Shown piece after piece: positions 25,443 through 62,393 of a DNA stretch of 64,000 bases (position 1 is the first letter of the stretch; every line of letters begins with the position of its first letter). Under the pieces are notes generated by a model that saw only the letters and a program-made list of their open reading frames with translations, made no database searches and was not told the origin of the DNA. The translations under genes were made by a program, and so were the position numbers. The stretch spans positions 32,001 through 96,000 of IMG/VR virus record IMGVR_UViG_3300032087_003621; one strand, 5' to 3'. This DNA is from a virus.

Positions 25443-26546
25443 ATGCATAGTGGAAACAAAGAAAGAAATAGACGAGAACTTGTTCTATATGACAGGAAAA
25501 TTGAAGAAGTACTTCCTGATCATTTTAGACAAGACTATCCTCAGTTTATTACCTTTCTAGAAAAATATTACGAGTGGGCCTCGAGCGAAGAGTCTCCAGC
25601 TGAGTTAGTCGAACATCTTTTCGAAACTAAAGATGTTGTGGAGACGGACGAAGACCTTTTATCTTTTCTAGAAGATGAATTACTTTTAGGTGAAAGTTAT
25701 TTTCAGGGGTTTGCTGATAAGAGGGGTGCTGCACAGATAGCTGGGAATTTGTATAAAACAAAAGGTTCCGAACTATCTATTCAACAGTTCTTTCGTTCAT
25801 TTTTTGGAGAGGACCCAGACGTTGAATATACTAGTGAAAAGATTTTCAAATTAAACAATTCAGAAATTGGCGCACTCAGTAACAGATTTTTAACGGACGA
25901 TAAACTATATCAGACCTTTGCGATATTAATTAAAATAGGTATTCCTATTTCAGTATGGCGAGAAGTTTATAAGCTGTTCGTTCATCCGGCTGGATTTTAT
26001 CTTGCTGGACAAATTCAAGCAGTTGGTGAAGCTGGGTTTGGTGGTTTACCGTTTGATGGTTATGATGTTATGGATAGTGCTGGTCCGAAGAGGTCGCCTC
26101 TCGTACTCATTGTCGATTCTGCTACAGTATCACCTTTGGTTGCAAATCAGGGAGAACTCAGTCACTATGCTATTTACGATTCTGAATACACAGGTGGTCT
26201 TGGTAAGGTTAAAGTTTCATTGGATAGATATCATATAGAACAATTTGAAGATTATACACTCAACCCTCTGGCAACATTCTCACCGACCACACTAAAACTA
26301 TTGGGCGGATTTGTAGTTCCAGGCGAAAGAGATGCTTTCTCTGGTGTTGATGGTAATAACGCTCTTGTCGGAACGATTGGTGTTGATTATGACTCTTCAT
26401 ATGTCACACCGAAACTTTCGTCTTTTGATATGGATAGTAGTGCGGATGCTGACCAAATCCTTGGTAGTACAATTGACTTCTCAATGGATTCAGACCCATC
26501 ACTTACAACGTTTATGGGTACTTTCTCAACATTCGATAGAAAATAA
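25443..26546 (+). CDS. Baseplate wedge protein (short gp7-like)
   Basis: YP.F..FL..YYE, Y.TKGS..S...FFR, K..VHPAGF. Confidence 0.7.
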   Translation: MHSGNKERNRRELVLYDRKIEEVLPDHFRQDYPQFITFLEKYYEWASSEESPAELVEHLFETKDVVETDEDLLSFLEDELLLGESYFQGFADKRGAAQIAGNLYKTKGSELSIQQFFRSFFGEDPDVEYTSEKIFKLNNSEIGALSNRFLTDDKLYQTFAILIKIGIPISVWREVYKLFVHPAGFYLAGQIQAVGEAGFGGLPFDGYDVMDSAGPKRSPLVLIVDSATVSPLVANQGELSHYAIYDSEYTGGLGKVKVSLDRYHIEQFEDYTLNPLATFSPTTLKLLGGFVVPGERDAFSGVDGNNALVGTIGVDYDSSYVTPKLSSFDMDSSADADQILGSTIDFSMDSDPSLTTFMGTFSTFDRK

Positions 26547-26548
26547 CA

Positions 26549-26556
26549 TATAAATA
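26549..26556 (+). promoter_or_regulatory. T4-type late promoter
   Basis: TATAAATA. Confidence 0.75.
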
Positions 26557-26582
26557 AAAACTAAGGCAAATTGGATTAAAAA

Positions 26583-27617
26583 ATGACAAGGCAAATTATT
26601 TTTACTGGCACAACAGCGAACGATGGAACAGGAGACACTCTCCGTGACGGCGCTGCTAAAATAAATGCCAATTTCCGAGAAATTTATGAGACTTTTGGGC
26701 CTGATGGATTAATCATTGGAACACAGGTAGATTTTGATAGTGCGACTATCAATTTTATTGATACTACGTTAACGTTTAAAACGAATGTTGGTGCTGTTGG
26801 GCCCACAGCAGACCGAACAATTAGATTTCCTGATTATTCTGCTTTGGTTGTTCTTGATTCAGCAACACAAACATTAACAAATAAAACTTTAGATTCTTGT
26901 TCTTATGGTGCATTATTAATTAATGACCTTAGTGCCGACCATCAATATAAAGTTTTACCATCTGAACTTGCAGCTAACACGACAATTACTCTGCCTGTGT
27001 TAACGAATAATGATACGTTTGTCTTCGCTGATGCGTCACAATCCTTGAAAAACAAATCGTTAGATTCGGATACTATAAGCAACGCCATTATTACTGATAC
27101 TGTTTGGGTAGATACAAATGGTAATGGTATATTAGAATTTTCGAAAGTAACTGGTTCACCAGTTAACTATTTGCAGTTAAGAAATTCTTTAACAAACAGT
27201 CCGGTAGATATTACGGCGGATGGTACAGATACCGATGTTAGTATACGTCTTTTACCAAAGGGTGCGGGTGCTGTAGAACTCAGTGGAAAAGTTATGTTTG
27301 GTGATGGACAGTTCAACACCCTAACGGCTGATGGTGGGGCTTTGCCTAGTAGCCAACCTGCTATATTTTTAAACACTACAACTGGAACTCCTCCTCATGC
27401 TTGGACATTGAGTGACGGAGATGAGAAGGGTGAAGTAATATACATAACAAATATATCTGGTGCCAACAATGTAGAAATCACTCCAACCAATTTCGGTCAG
27501 GGTACTAAGTTTACGTTGACTGGAGGAACAGGTTCGAGTCCGACAGTTGCTCACCTGATTTGGGACGGTAGCAATTGGTATGTAATCAACAAAAGTGATG
27601 TAACCATAACAGTATAA
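26583..27617 (+). CDS. Baseplate/fibre connector with gp9/gp10-type N-terminus
   Basis: GTTANDGTGDTLRDGAAKINANFREIY; QTLTNKT repeats. Confidence 0.75.
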   Translation: MTRQIIFTGTTANDGTGDTLRDGAAKINANFREIYETFGPDGLIIGTQVDFDSATINFIDTTLTFKTNVGAVGPTADRTIRFPDYSALVVLDSATQTLTNKTLDSCSYGALLINDLSADHQYKVLPSELAANTTITLPVLTNNDTFVFADASQSLKNKSLDSDTISNAIITDTVWVDTNGNGILEFSKVTGSPVNYLQLRNSLTNSPVDITADGTDTDVSIRLLPKGAGAVELSGKVMFGDGQFNTLTADGGALPSSQPAIFLNTTTGTPPHAWTLSDGDEKGEVIYITNISGANNVEITPTNFGQGTKFTLTGGTGSSPTVAHLIWDGSNWYVINKSDVTITV

Positions 27618-60379: not shown

Positions 60380-60380
60380 T

Positions 60381-60388
60381 TATAAATA
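60381..60388 (+). promoter_or_regulatory. T4-type late promoter
   Basis: TATAAATA. Confidence 0.75.
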
Positions 60389-60449
60389 ACAGGGTGCACA
60401 AACCTTAAATTACATGTAATAAAAATTATTCTACGTAGGAGATATAGAA

Positions 60450-62393
60450 ATGCCAACAATTGTAGATCCAGATGGGTTGTTTGATACTGGTGGAGATTCC
60501 GCCGGTAAGAACATTCACATCGACACTGCATTACGAACAATTAAGATTCGTAACAACAGTGCAGCGCCAAAGGGACCCGTTCTTGATGAAACGGGGGTGA
60601 CGCTTCAGGCACTTTACAGCTTTCTTAAACAAGAATGGAAGGATGACCCAAACAGTAAACAGTTGATTGCTTATCCTTTCCCACTCGTCGCTATTACACC
60701 AGAACAGTTCGAATGGCGTTTCGGATGGTCACCTGCTGACGATTCATCGCGTTCTTTGATTCGTACTGCTGGATGGAGAGAATTTAGTACTGATGATACC
60801 ACATTGAAACGTCAGTATATTGGTACAATTTCTCTAGGTAATATCGATGGTGATCAGAACCAAGACGGTGCTGGTGACCAAGATTTCGTTTATTACGCAT
60901 TTTTTGATTCTGCAAATGGTACATCAAAGGCTGGTCCATTTGACTACAACTTCCCCGGCGAAGTTAACCAAGCAGTACTGACTTATAAAGACAGTGATGC
61001 AAACCAAACGGCAGAACTTGATTTTCGTGGAGATATTCTTCGTTTGTTCATTCGTCAAGAAGGTAAGACATACGACCAAACTGACACCGTAGATATCGGT
61101 TTGTCAGCTGGTACAACTCTTCCTTATAACACTCAACGATTCCCGTTGGTTGAAGGTAACGACCTTAAAATTACTGGTGCTGGTGGTGTAAGTGACGCAA
61201 CTATTTTAGCTGCAAAAGGAAATGGTCAAAAGTACTCGACTACAGGTGACGGTTCTACCATTGAATATCTTGCGGTAGATGAAGCATCTAACACTTTCGG
61301 TTATTCAGAAGACTTGTTGGGTGGTCCTTTCAATTTTGGTGTTAAGATTAAATCTGCATCAGGCGTTGATGGAACAACACCTTTAACTAACCAAGAATTA
61401 TATGCTTGGGTTCAATATAACTTGCGTCAAGATTCTGATATTGAATTTGCTGCAGGTACAGTTAAGAGTGGTAAACTGGCAGATGAATTGTTGGCCTTTG
61501 TTGGTGATACATTAACAACTAAACCAGTAACTAATATCGACCAAAACGGTACCAGAACTGGTGTTGCGATTACTAATGTTAATGCTGATGATATCAACAA
61601 CACCCAGTTGTTCAATACTGGTGGGTCGTTGCAATCATTCCCGTTCTCTACTGCAATTAGTATTGGTTTCTCTCAAGATATTTTGGATGATGGTGCTAAC
61701 GCTAAAGTGTTTGTATACTATGACCACACACGTGATTACGCTGTTGGTGGTGAAATCGGAACGTCGATTCAACTTGCTGACGTAGGTCCGTCAGCAACTA
61801 ATGCGTATCTTGACAGTGCTAACATTACTTTAAATGGTGCGGTATCGTTCACACCTTTATTGACAACCACTACTGTTCAGAACCCAGAGGGTCTAGACCC
61901 CTTAACTGATGCTAATGCATATTTCCGCTTAAATAAAGCTAGTGGTACTGGTGCTAATCACAACGTTATTTGGAAAGTAACTTCTGTAGTCGATTCCAGT
62001 AACTTTGCGGCGATTACACTTGATGATACGGTTGCACCAATTAATGAGACTTTGAATACAGCGGGCGATGCAATTTACACTCACCCAATCAACTCTCCGG
62101 GCGCATTGTTACTTGACTCTGCTGGTGCAACAGCAGAAAATAATGTTGCACAGGCGGCCGTTTCGGACCTTGCATCTGGTAGTTTAACAAACAACCGTTT
62201 TGTGGTATCTTATGCGTTTGATAACAATTCACAAAAAGACAGAGAAGGTGGACAACCTTTCGATGTTAACGTTCGTGCAATTGGATTGAACAATGGTACT
62301 TGGGTGGAACAGACTGCAACGATTACAGAACAGAATACAAATAGTATCTCTGTAGTATCTGCTGTAGAACGTAACTACTCTGACCCAGCATAA
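60450..62393 (+). CDS. Putative virion structural protein
   Basis: Late promoter, AGGAG RBS; GVTLQALYSFLK.EWK.D, ITPEQFE, ERNYSDP. Confidence 0.7.
   Translation: MPTIVDPDGLFDTGGDSAGKNIHIDTALRTIKIRNNSAAPKGPVLDETGVTLQALYSFLKQEWKDDPNSKQLIAYPFPLVAITPEQFEWRFGWSPADDSSRSLIRTAGWREFSTDDTTLKRQYIGTISLGNIDGDQNQDGAGDQDFVYYAFFDSANGTSKAGPFDYNFPGEVNQAVLTYKDSDANQTAELDFRGDILRLFIRQEGKTYDQTDTVDIGLSAGTTLPYNTQRFPLVEGNDLKITGAGGVSDATILAAKGNGQKYSTTGDGSTIEYLAVDEASNTFGYSEDLLGGPFNFGVKIKSASGVDGTTPLTNQELYAWVQYNLRQDSDIEFAAGTVKSGKLADELLAFVGDTLTTKPVTNIDQNGTRTGVAITNVNADDINNTQLFNTGGSLQSFPFSTAISIGFSQDILDDGANAKVFVYYDHTRDYAVGGEIGTSIQLADVGPSATNAYLDSANITLNGAVSFTPLLTTTTVQNPEGLDPLTDANAYFRLNKASGTGANHNVIWKVTSVVDSSNFAAITLDDTVAPINETLNTAGDAIYTHPINSPGALLLDSAGATAENNVAQAAVSDLASGSLTNNRFVVSYAFDNNSQKDREGGQPFDVNVRAIGLNNGTWVEQTATITEQNTNSISVVSAVERNYSDPA

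Follow-up and report, generated by a model that had tools for sequence, protein, structure and literature searches.

We analysed a stretch of 64,000 nucleotides (the window) from the genome of a marine virus, and found that the tripeptide Asp-Ser-(Ala/Asp), written here as DSA or DSD and collectively as DS[AD], is over-represented in the outward-facing tail proteins encoded there. The window corresponds to bases 32001-96000 of the 146,377-bp record IMGVR_UViG_3300032087_003621, and the genome is labelled G000 in the comparisons. G000 is a marine T4-like phage with genes for ThyX, gp32, baseplate, VrlC, fibres, neck, terminase, sheath, tube and portal in the customary order. Among 50,697 phage genomes, the nearest to G000 was Phage C48C1 with a portal identity of 69%, and the portals of Melnitz, Mosig, HTVC008M and cyanomyophages were 49-53% identical. 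The gene content, including VrlC, GT8 genes and an operon for exported proteins, agrees with that of metagenomic pelagimyophages (PMC7029224).

The proteins carrying the tripeptide are encoded on the plus strand, beginning with a gp7-like outer baseplate protein of 367 amino acids (25443..26546), which contains DSA at residues 211 and 225 and DSD at residue 349, together with one DSE and two DSS. It is followed by a gp9-like connector/fibre protein of 344 amino acids (26583..27617) with DSA at 52 and 92, DSD at 161 and a DSC, and by a gp8-type baseplate wedge protein of 480 amino acids (27635..29077; phrog_438, E 1e-61), whose seven Asp-Ser pairs include DSA-190 and DSD-352. The VrlC-like giant structural protein (2024 amino acids, 29090..35164) has five DSA among ten Asp-Ser pairs. 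In the fibre protein of 2166 amino acids (35390..41890), nine DSA and three DSD account for most of the 15 pairs, and six of the DSA belong to a repeat in residues 212-755, while a second fibre protein of 1601 amino acids (44639..49444) has one DSA and three DSD among eight pairs. A small fibre-assembly-like protein of 125 amino acids (50252..50629), matching phrog_1084 and phrog_3304 ('L-shaped tail fiber protein assembly'), contains DSD, DSA and DSS. The gp15 tail sheath stabiliser (266 amino acids, 52406..53206; phrog_227) has two DSD in its last 40 residues, and the sole Asp-Ser pair of the gp18 tail sheath (593 amino acids, 55242..57023) is a DSD. Finally, a structural protein of 647 amino acids resembling Syn5 gp53 (60450..62393, hereafter the 60450 protein) has four DSA and two DSD among eight pairs, and a 685-residue protein with a C-terminal tail like that of Syn5 gp54 (63187..63999, continuing to genome position 97244) has three DSA among five pairs. 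A preliminary description of the window had put the Asp-Ser dipeptides of ten of these proteins at about 65, with about 24 DSA, about 15 DSD and about one DST, and we counted exactly 65, with 25 DSA, 15 DSD and two DST. The clusters that it named in the C-terminal part of the gp7-like protein, the last 40 residues of gp15 and the 50252 protein (given there as 50264) are present, and ThyX, gp32, gp17 and gp20 were again found to be without DSA or DSD.

The last two of these proteins form an unusual pair for a T4-like phage and are encoded between the portal and prohead protease genes (60450-62393 and 63187-63999). The 60450 protein resembles gp53 of the cyanopodovirus Syn5 with 32% identity over about 450 amino acids (E 4e-45), and the 63187 protein resembles Syn5 gp54 over the C-terminal 64 amino acids only (E 6e-5). 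A C-terminal tail of the form (D/E)R(N/Q)Y..(D/N)P is shared by the 60450 protein, the 63187 protein, Syn5 gp53 and Syn5 gp54. We take gp53 and gp54 to be the 'horn' proteins of Syn5.

When we ranked all tripeptides of the structural block (window position 25443 to about 68400; 14,099 amino acids) against the expectation from dipeptides, DSA was at rank 1 with 29 occurrences versus 8.7 expected (z 6.9), and DSD was the next well-populated tripeptide with 19 versus 6.2 (z 5.1). In the remaining 32,406 amino acids of G000 both were slightly under expectation, with DSA at 3 versus 5.5 and DSD at 3 versus 5.3. The skew continues beyond the end of the window into the following three open reading frames. 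Similar flanks were found at only six of the 48 DS[AD] sites, all of them in the repeat of the fibre at 35390, and the flanks were scored as dissimilar for 43 of the 48. When this repeat was collapsed and each protein was subjected to 1000 dipeptide-preserving shuffles, 24 DSA remained versus 8.2 ± 2.5 (highest shuffle value 18) and 19 DSD versus 5.8 ± 2.2 (highest shuffle value 15). The family-wise largest z over all tripeptides in the shuffles had a 95th percentile of 4.42 and a maximum of 5.61, and the observed values were 5.77 for DSA and 5.41 for DSD. The skew thus survives correction for composition, dipeptides and repeats, and an artefact of repeats was ruled out, since there is one six-member repeat family only and the skew outlasts its collapse. 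The Ser codons at the sites are mixed (AGT, TCT, TCA, TCG and TCC), and since they come from both codon boxes (AGT and TCN), the signal lies in the protein and a motif at the DNA level was ruled out. The over-representation of DS[AD] in the outer tail proteins, about three to five times chance, is real.

The residue specificity of the tripeptide was measured against the expectation from composition in the structural blocks of three divergent genomes, namely G000, G024 (45% guanine-cytosine (GC) content) and G036. D-S-A was found at 4.7-9.5 times and D-S-D at 2.7-8.8 times the expectation, whereas E-S-A reached 0-0.4 times, N-S-A 0.2-2.1 times and D-T-A 0.2-0.7 times, so that Asp alone is enriched at position -1. 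In the structural block of G000, DTA occurs 6 times versus 8.4 expected and DTD 9 times versus 8.3, and hydrophobic residues, basic residues and Thr after Asp-Ser are at or below expectation (DSL, DSI, DSV, DSM and DST). With a residue other than Ser in the middle, D-x-D is for the most part near 1 time and at most 1.9 times the expectation, which rules out a generic D-x-D cation motif. An immunoglobulin-type tyrosine corner (D-S-A-x-Y) was likewise ruled out, as Tyr is absent at +4. The residue preceding the tripeptide is mostly hydrophobic, and Gly, Thr or Ser is frequent after it. DSA, DSD, DSS, DSG and DSC swap in identical alignment columns among relatives. The unit therefore consists of Asp, only Ser, and then Ala or Asp, with Ser, Gly and Cys as occasional substitutes for the third residue in the same columns. 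Since an intramolecular turn motif would normally tolerate exchange of Ser with Thr and of Asp with Asn, such a motif is disfavoured.

The preliminary description had placed the skew in outer virion proteins, and grouping the orthologues of ten clade genomes by their position in the particle bore this out. Among the outer proteins (gp7-like, gp9-like, gp8, VrlC, gp15 and sheath), 125 of 219 Asp-Ser pairs are DS[AD], compared with 11 of 128 in the inner or core virion proteins (gp6, gp13, gp14, tube, portal, capsid, scaffold, gp5, gp27, gp48 and tape measure) and 2 of 68 in replication and packaging proteins (gp17, gp43, gp32, gp41, UvsW and gp46). The shares of outer and inner proteins differ with a Fisher p of 5e-21, where the pooled sites are partly homologous, and the partition recurs in each of the ten genomes. 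The skew is thus restricted to outward-facing tail, baseplate and fibre proteins. The 60450 protein, for which no PDB match was found at E <= 0.001, gave a confident AlphaFold model (predicted local distance difference test (pLDDT) 88.5). Of its eight Asp-Ser sites, six fall in a loop or where a strand ends, one begins a short helix and one begins a strand. The gp8 model had a pLDDT of 51 and was left out of the site mapping.

The tripeptide is conserved in relatives and is also renewed at new positions. Relatives retrieved through gp8 retain the skew at 70-91%, 54% and 38% identity. The 60450 protein has 117 full-length homologues with identity down to 37%, which contain on average 5.0 DS[AD] versus 0.75 expected, and in this family the tripeptides form islands that are conserved at 0.7-0.9, compared with 0.02-0.5 for the neighbouring residues. 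DS[AD] occupies 32 alignment columns of the family, while DS[LIV] occupies 9, DS[KRE] 8 and DT[AD] 15. At all five aligned Asp-Ser sites of the 60450 protein, Syn5 gp53 (32% identity) has DAS, AQS, GSD or gaps. When we examined the genomic neighbourhoods of the homologues, the skew was 2-6 fold around homologues of 44% identity or more, and about 1 fold in remoter phages. In the baseplate, DSA-211 of the gp7-like protein is retained in 15 of 15 orthologues with identity down to 52%, and its other sites alternate between DSE, DSD and DST or between DSD and DSS. The sites of the gp9-like protein lie within the fibre motif L-DS[A/S/D]-T-x-T-L-x-N-K-T-L, and the corresponding columns of relatives hold DSA, DSS, DSD or DSC. 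In gp8, 22 orthologues have DSD and 4 have DSA at column 352, column 399 is DSS, DSG or DSA, and column 416 is nearly always DST; DS[AD] was found in 11 different alignment columns of this family. Over the clade, DS[AD] accounts for 33 of 64 Asp-Ser pairs in VrlC, 12 of 20 in gp15 and 18 of 21 in the sheath.

The skew is confined to one lineage of T4-like phages. The structural proteins of T4 (13,000 amino acids) contain DSA 3 times versus 4.3 expected and DSD 2 times versus 3.9, and no skew was found in the structural proteins of cyanophage S-RIM2, pelagiphage HTVC008M or Melnitz. In contrast, the contigs retrieved through the glycosyltransferase genes described below (G024, G026, G028 and G036-G038) were strongly skewed, with DSD at 46 versus 13.3 genome-wide in G024, DSA at 71 versus 22 in G026, DSA at 12 versus 6.8 and DSD at 18 versus 5.6 in G028, and DSA at 120 versus 28 in G036; G037 and G038 are skewed as well. 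The skewed genomes span 35-45% GC. In a tree of gp20, gp23 and gp18, all of them form one clade with 100% support, whose sister group consists of Melnitz, HTVC008M and S-RIM2. In the basal member C48C1 only DSD is in excess, and only in fibres and sheath; no DS[AD] occurs in its proteins of the gp7, gp8 and VrlC types. The most extreme case is a 2855-residue fibre protein of a 155-kb relative (G036:C1:66129-74696), in which 80 of 116 Asp-Ser pairs are DSA or DSD. The fibres of HTVC008M (30000-79999) over-represent other tripeptides (DSF 19 versus 4.9, LDA 25 versus 6.0, TNK and NKT), which come from a fibre repeat related to L-D-x-x-x-x-T-L-T-N-K-T, and an excess of DSA or DSD is absent there.

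The sugar genes of G000 lie upstream of the structural genes. The glycosyltransferase cluster that the preliminary description had located at 1-2.6 kb exists, but it is larger, comprising about 17 tightly packed, overlapping genes at G000:C1:23068-35228, of which only the final ones fall in the window (1-3228). It encodes four GT8-like paralogues with a D-x-D motif, a GT25 protein, an NAD-epimerase, a sulfotransferase, a plant-type DUF579-like (TIGR01627) sugar O-methyltransferase, two class I methyltransferases and a HAD-phosphatase/nucleotidyltransferase fusion. Two of the four GT8-like paralogues, which lie upstream of the window, pass the PF01501 cut-off (28.5 and 25.7 bits versus 24.3); all four have D-x-D (DAD or DTD) at residues 78-89, and their relatives are nearly all viral. 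Within the window, all on the plus strand, are the 3' part of a class I methyltransferase gene (6..482; Methyltransf_24, below cut-off), which is a variable member of the cluster, the GT25-family glycosyltransferase (482..1129; PF01755, E 4e-13), the unnamed soluble protein u33101 of 223 amino acids (1101..1772), which matches no Pfam, PHROG or NCBIfam entry, and the unnamed soluble protein u33765 of 264 amino acids (1765..2559). Only four kinds of genes are kept across the skewed genomes, namely GT8-like, GT25, u33101 and u33765, and we refer to these as the core module; the sulfotransferase, the HAD-nucleotidyltransferase and the methyltransferases vary. GT25 homologues have 46-65% identity in most skewed genomes with the region on record and 24% in G025, and u33101 was found in G001, G024-G028 and G036-G038; both are absent from C48C1, and u33101 is also absent from the unrelated phage G023. 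No membrane segment was found in the cluster proteins, and none of them was assigned to a family of membrane-bound priming or initiating transferases, flippases, polymerases or ligases. Since the module proteins are soluble and without such partner families, their acceptor would be cytoplasmic or at the inner leaflet. When the module proteins were searched against PDB and NCBIfam, the DUF579-like sugar methyltransferase was the sole result.

Skew and module occur together in G000-G004, G024-G026, G028 and G036-G038, and C48C1 has a partial module of u33765 and one GT8-like gene. The glycosyltransferase genes were found in 12 of 12 skewed relatives with enough sequence, and the relatives without them (T4, S-RIM2, HTVC008M and Melnitz) show no skew. 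However, the co-occurrence maps to one branch of the tree, and since all skewed, module-bearing genomes sit on this branch, it represents one evolutionary event and not many. Phyletic profiling against G012 was discarded, as G012 is too distant. With regard to expression, an exact TATAAATA, the T4-type late promoter, was found 7-63 bp upstream of most structural genes (window positions 9430, 15092, 23097, 26549, 35234, 44593, 50226, 55172 and 60381). There is no TATAAATA within genome positions 23-35 kb, and late co-expression of the module with the tail genes was rejected; a consensus sigma70 promoter, TTGACA-17-TATAAT, lies upstream of the sugar cluster at genome positions 19669-19727.

Among the module genes, u33765 is the only one that is present in every skewed genome, including C48C1, and in no unskewed one. 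Since its distribution matches the skew in all genomes, it is the best-fitting candidate for an enzyme that reads the tripeptide. Four complete outgroup genomes encode neither u33765 nor a member of the GT8-like family, C48C1 is the only one of the 50,697 phage records that has them, and u33765 is also missing from 12 unskewed IMG/VR records. More than 650 proteins belong to the u33765 family, and all of them seem to be viral; seven matches in bacterial genomes were all mis-binned phage contigs. These contigs (L350-L356, one of them 142 kb) are pieces of DS[AD]-clade phages found in GTDB metagenome-assembled genomes (MAGs) labelled Flavobacteriales, Balneola, Microbacteriaceae, Sphingobacteriales, Limisphaerales, Porticoccaceae and Planktosalinus. 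Four of the six contigs examined are syntenic with the module and gp32, and the other two have just one or two genes in common; since they are phage contigs, their MAG labels are a poor guide to the host. The u33765 protein shows the invariant pattern G-N-G-D ... C-N ... N-F-N-C-G-H ... G-F-D, and in alignment A4 the residues G11, N12, G13, D14, C32, N33, N118, C119, G120, G140, F141 and D142 are invariant. Through a profile search for distant relatives we reached small contigs from a phage family that is not T4-like, in which the gene is located just upstream of fibre genes, and the consensus of the distant relatives is G-N-G-P-S ... G-C-N ... N-S-G-H ... W-G-x-D-S. The G-N-G and G-x-D motifs may correspond to the N-terminal nucleotide-sugar motif of the G-N-G-P-S type and the later small-residue ... 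G-x-D motif of GT42 and Maf enzymes. Sub-threshold matches to PF01973 (MptE-like/Maf) were obtained for 6 of 29 family members (E 0.03-0.19), and PF06002 was not among the matches. The nearest neighbours of u33765 in a protein language model (Atlas) are MptE-like and CST-I sialyltransferase clusters with scores of 0.86-0.89, which we treat as a lead only.

Based on these observations, we suggest from sequence that DS[AD] is a lineage-specific tag, probably for modification of its Ser residue, and that the tripeptide is probably read by a phage enzyme. Since so strict a motif appeared in one clade only, at unrelated positions that number in the dozens and in about a dozen families of proteins that differ in name and architecture, as islands that are renewed and on the tail exterior only, it seems that something reads it, and folding alone is hard to credit. 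In addition, a trans-acting reader is indicated because a universal structural need would not be clade-specific. The attachment of a sugar is most plausibly the purpose of the tag, and our best guess for the added group is a sugar, since the one gene set with the same clade distribution consists of glycosyltransferases, which are soluble. Observed directly are the enrichment, the residue specificity, the conservation as islands, the confinement to one clade and to its outer proteins, and the co-distribution with the module; we infer that there is a modification of the Ser in the first place, that it would be a glycan, and which enzyme might be responsible. In this proposal, the tag would have been gained at many unrelated positions of the sheath, gp15, the outer baseplate, VrlC, the fibres and the Syn5-gp53/54-like proteins in one uncultured marine T4-like clade of the pelagimyophage type. 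T4-type virions are assembled in the cytoplasm, where the soluble clade-specific phage enzymes would meet the tagged proteins and may put a sugar on the Ser hydroxyl before or during tail assembly, giving a coated tail exterior. The core enzyme set would be the GT8-like transferase, GT25, u33101 and u33765, with u33765 as the best candidate reader. We assign a probability of roughly 0.4 to this reading, in which a tag gained in one clade is used by a cytoplasmic phage enzyme set that adds sugar to Ser on the tail exterior. As a tentative and more specific form of it, this large clade of abundant phages may encode its own cytoplasmic Ser-specific modification system that reads Asp-Ser-Ala/Asp at about 50 to 150 tags per genome and produces a phage-made, probably glycan, coat on the tail, with a new family of small Maf/GT42-like enzymes as the reader. 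The idea of the preliminary description that sequon-directed glycosylation could coat a T4-like virion is partly supported, by the enrichment, the outer location, the strand-end or loop sites of the 60450 model and the co-distribution of the module, whereas the poor fit of its Bacteroidota model, the single branch and the early-type promoter speak against it.

Several observations weigh against a sugar-adding phage system. Many tags keep their position at strand ends, which is compatible with a structural role too, and the major capsid protein is exposed yet without the tag. A single clade with 100% support holds all the skewed, module-bearing genomes, and the co-occurrence could thus be coincidence. 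The unrelated 183-kb phage G023 has GT8-like and GT25 genes without u33101 and u33765, and the skew is absent. In the non-T4-like family with distant u33765 relatives, DSA occurs 33 times versus 9.7 expected by composition and 20.5 expected by dipeptide (z 2.8, rank 130); the excess shrinks under the dipeptide expectation because Ser-Ala is common there, and it has no significance after multiple testing, so that this family speaks neither clearly for nor clearly against a link between the gene and the tripeptide. The module lacks late promoters and is preceded by a promoter of the sigma70 type, with no obvious co-regulation with the tail genes. GT8 and GT25 are classic families of lipopolysaccharide (LPS) core synthesis, where they are likewise active without membrane segments, and the GT8 clusters of pelagimyophages have been published as modifiers of the host O-chain against co-infection (PMC7029224). 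With respect to the candidate reader, u33765 scored 11.9 bits against PF01973 versus a curated cut-off of 34.6, and a profile search of PDB found no relative. We also sought NeuB (PF03102) and a cytidine monophosphate (CMP)-sugar synthetase (PF02348) in G000, and neither is encoded; a CMP-nonulosonate donor could be supplied by the host instead.

Part of the evidence would be explained as well if the tripeptide were never modified and acted in structure or assembly, as a strand-terminating cap or turn, as the target of a clade-specific chaperone or as a packing need of trimers. The strand ends and loop starts occupied by six of eight sites in the 60450 model fit such a role, and so do the mostly hydrophobic residue before the tag and the frequent Gly, Thr or Ser after it, the conservation of several sites down to 37-52% identity, the location of one site within the known fibre motif ...TLTNKTL, and the fact that the small fibre-assembly-like protein is tagged itself. 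We nevertheless regard this explanation as unlikely, if a serious one, since the homologous folds of T4, cyanophage and pelagiphage manage without the tag, exchanges of Asp with Glu or Asn and of Ser with Thr are not tolerated, beta-rich inner proteins (tube, gp6, gp27 and gp5) do not have it, and it turns over among 32 columns in the 60450 family. The tag may also be read by something other than a glycosyltransferase, namely a Ser kinase, a phospho-sugar or phosphoglycerol transferase, a sulfotransferase acting on Ser, or a ligand that binds non-covalently, for instance a cation or a host surface polymer bound weakly by the tail exterior. The strict specificity for Ser and Asp suits kinases or phosphotransferases, and a sulfotransferase and several methyltransferases are encoded in the G000 cluster. 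However, the skewed genomes do not consistently retain the sulfotransferase, the HAD-nucleotidyltransferase or the methyltransferases, and generic D-x-D metal motifs are not enriched, so that we give this possibility little credit.

It is improbable, in our view, that the skew is a historical accident in the clade ancestor, through drift, gene conversion of fibre modules or local composition, which was then simply inherited, and that the sugar module serves for modification of host LPS. Its single origin on the tree, the published interpretation of GT8 clusters (PMC7029224) and the position of the module in an early-type transcription unit would agree with such a history, but the family-wise shuffle test was exceeded, the flanks of the sites are unrelated, and the skew lasts and is renewed at new columns through divergence to 37% identity and across 35-45% GC. 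That outer and inner proteins are set apart in the same way in each of the ten genomes is also at odds with an accident, and the evidence of selection on the tag already weighs against it. The general O-glycosylation of a Bacteroidota-type host, which the preliminary description had taken as its model, can hardly be what modifies the virion at D-S-A. The motif of that system is D-(S/T)-(A/I/L/V/M/T), with an extended set of S/G/F/C at the third position (PMC8729774), and it is like the phage tag in having three residues with Asp first, the modified Ser in the centre and Ala accepted as the third; DSA therefore fits it. Yet that system takes Thr and a hydrophobic third residue and does not list Asp, whereas in the phage Thr and hydrophobic residues at +1 are not enriched and Asp at +1 is, so that the shape of the motif largely refutes both the model and the host-based explanation. 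Moreover, it acts on exported proteins in the periplasm and is inactive in the cytoplasm (PMC8729774), whereas the phage tag is on cytoplasmic virion parts. Four of the seven mis-binned contigs are in MAGs labelled Bacteroidota or Balneola, but they are phage contigs whose labels say little of the host, and the clade agrees with the published pelagimyophage genomes (PMC7029224).

The proposed sugar-adding phage system would share features with several known ones. The soluble bacterial glycosyltransferases SdgB and SdgA act stepwise to add N-acetylglucosamine (GlcNAc) directly to Asp-flanked Ser, in which DSD is the repeat unit, and this glycosylation shields staphylococcal surface adhesins from proteases (PMC3794999). 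The phage Ser is similarly flanked by Asp, as in the DSD of G000 (19 versus 6.2) and G024 (46 versus 13.3). However, the acceptor of SdgB and SdgA is a long tandem SD repeat, while the phage tags are isolated tripeptides at strand ends with unrelated flanks, in which DSA is as frequent as DSD; an SdgB-type enzyme was not seen in the phage module, where the recognisable transferases are GT8 and GT25. Maf enzymes glycosylate Ser of flagellin in the cytoplasm before the external filament is assembled, with a preference for particular serines (PMC4065374; bioRxiv 10.1101/2023.12.03.569772). The weak PF01973 matches and the Maf/CST-I Atlas neighbours of u33765 point in the same direction. On the other hand, Maf recognises flagellin by extra binding domains or a partner protein rather than by a short sequon as proposed here, it uses CMP-nonulosonates, for which the phage encodes no pathway, and u33765 (about 200-260 amino acids) is far smaller than Maf and below the family cut-off.

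For mycobacteriophages, glycosylation of virions is already on record (Freeman et al. 2023, Cell Host Microbe, as cited in PMC12801897). In that system, phage-encoded glycosyltransferases decorate the phage's own virion, and G000 likewise encodes GT25 and GT8 genes. The targets there are reportedly the capsid and the tail tube, without a defined short sequon. In the DS[AD] clade, by contrast, capsid and tube are both untagged and the tail exterior carries a sharp tripeptide. The pelagimyophages of Zaragoza-Solas et al. 2020 resemble G000 in being marine T4-like metagenome-assembled viral genomes (MAVGs) that encode VrlC, GT8 proteins and a curli-like export operon, and the passages of that report that were consulted mention no motif of virion proteins (PMC7029224). 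We found no description of the DS[AD] motif in the papers searched.

If the tag is modified, it would be the first sequon-like code for the decoration of a phage particle, and the first such system in open-ocean T4-like phages. If sheath, baseplate and fibres were coated with sugar, this would matter for adsorption, protection from proteases and stickiness to marine polymers, and the GT8-rich 'LPS' clusters of pelagimyophages, which are now taken as modifiers of the host surface, would have to be read anew. A short and strict tag that can be counted lends itself directly to testing. If there is no modification, a strict tripeptide that is found clade-wide and is confined to outer tail proteins still needs explaining.

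Two further features of the window were observed. The region 59294-60379 encodes a collagen-like fibre protein of 361 amino acids, which matches many PHROG families of 'collagen like minor tail' and tail fibre proteins. The GT25 family includes collagen hydroxylysine galactosyltransferases, and the collagen-like fibre protein and the GT25 gene are encoded by one genome. In addition, three phage tRNA genes are located at 4816-5364, namely Thr-TGT, Asn-GTT and Tyr-GTA.

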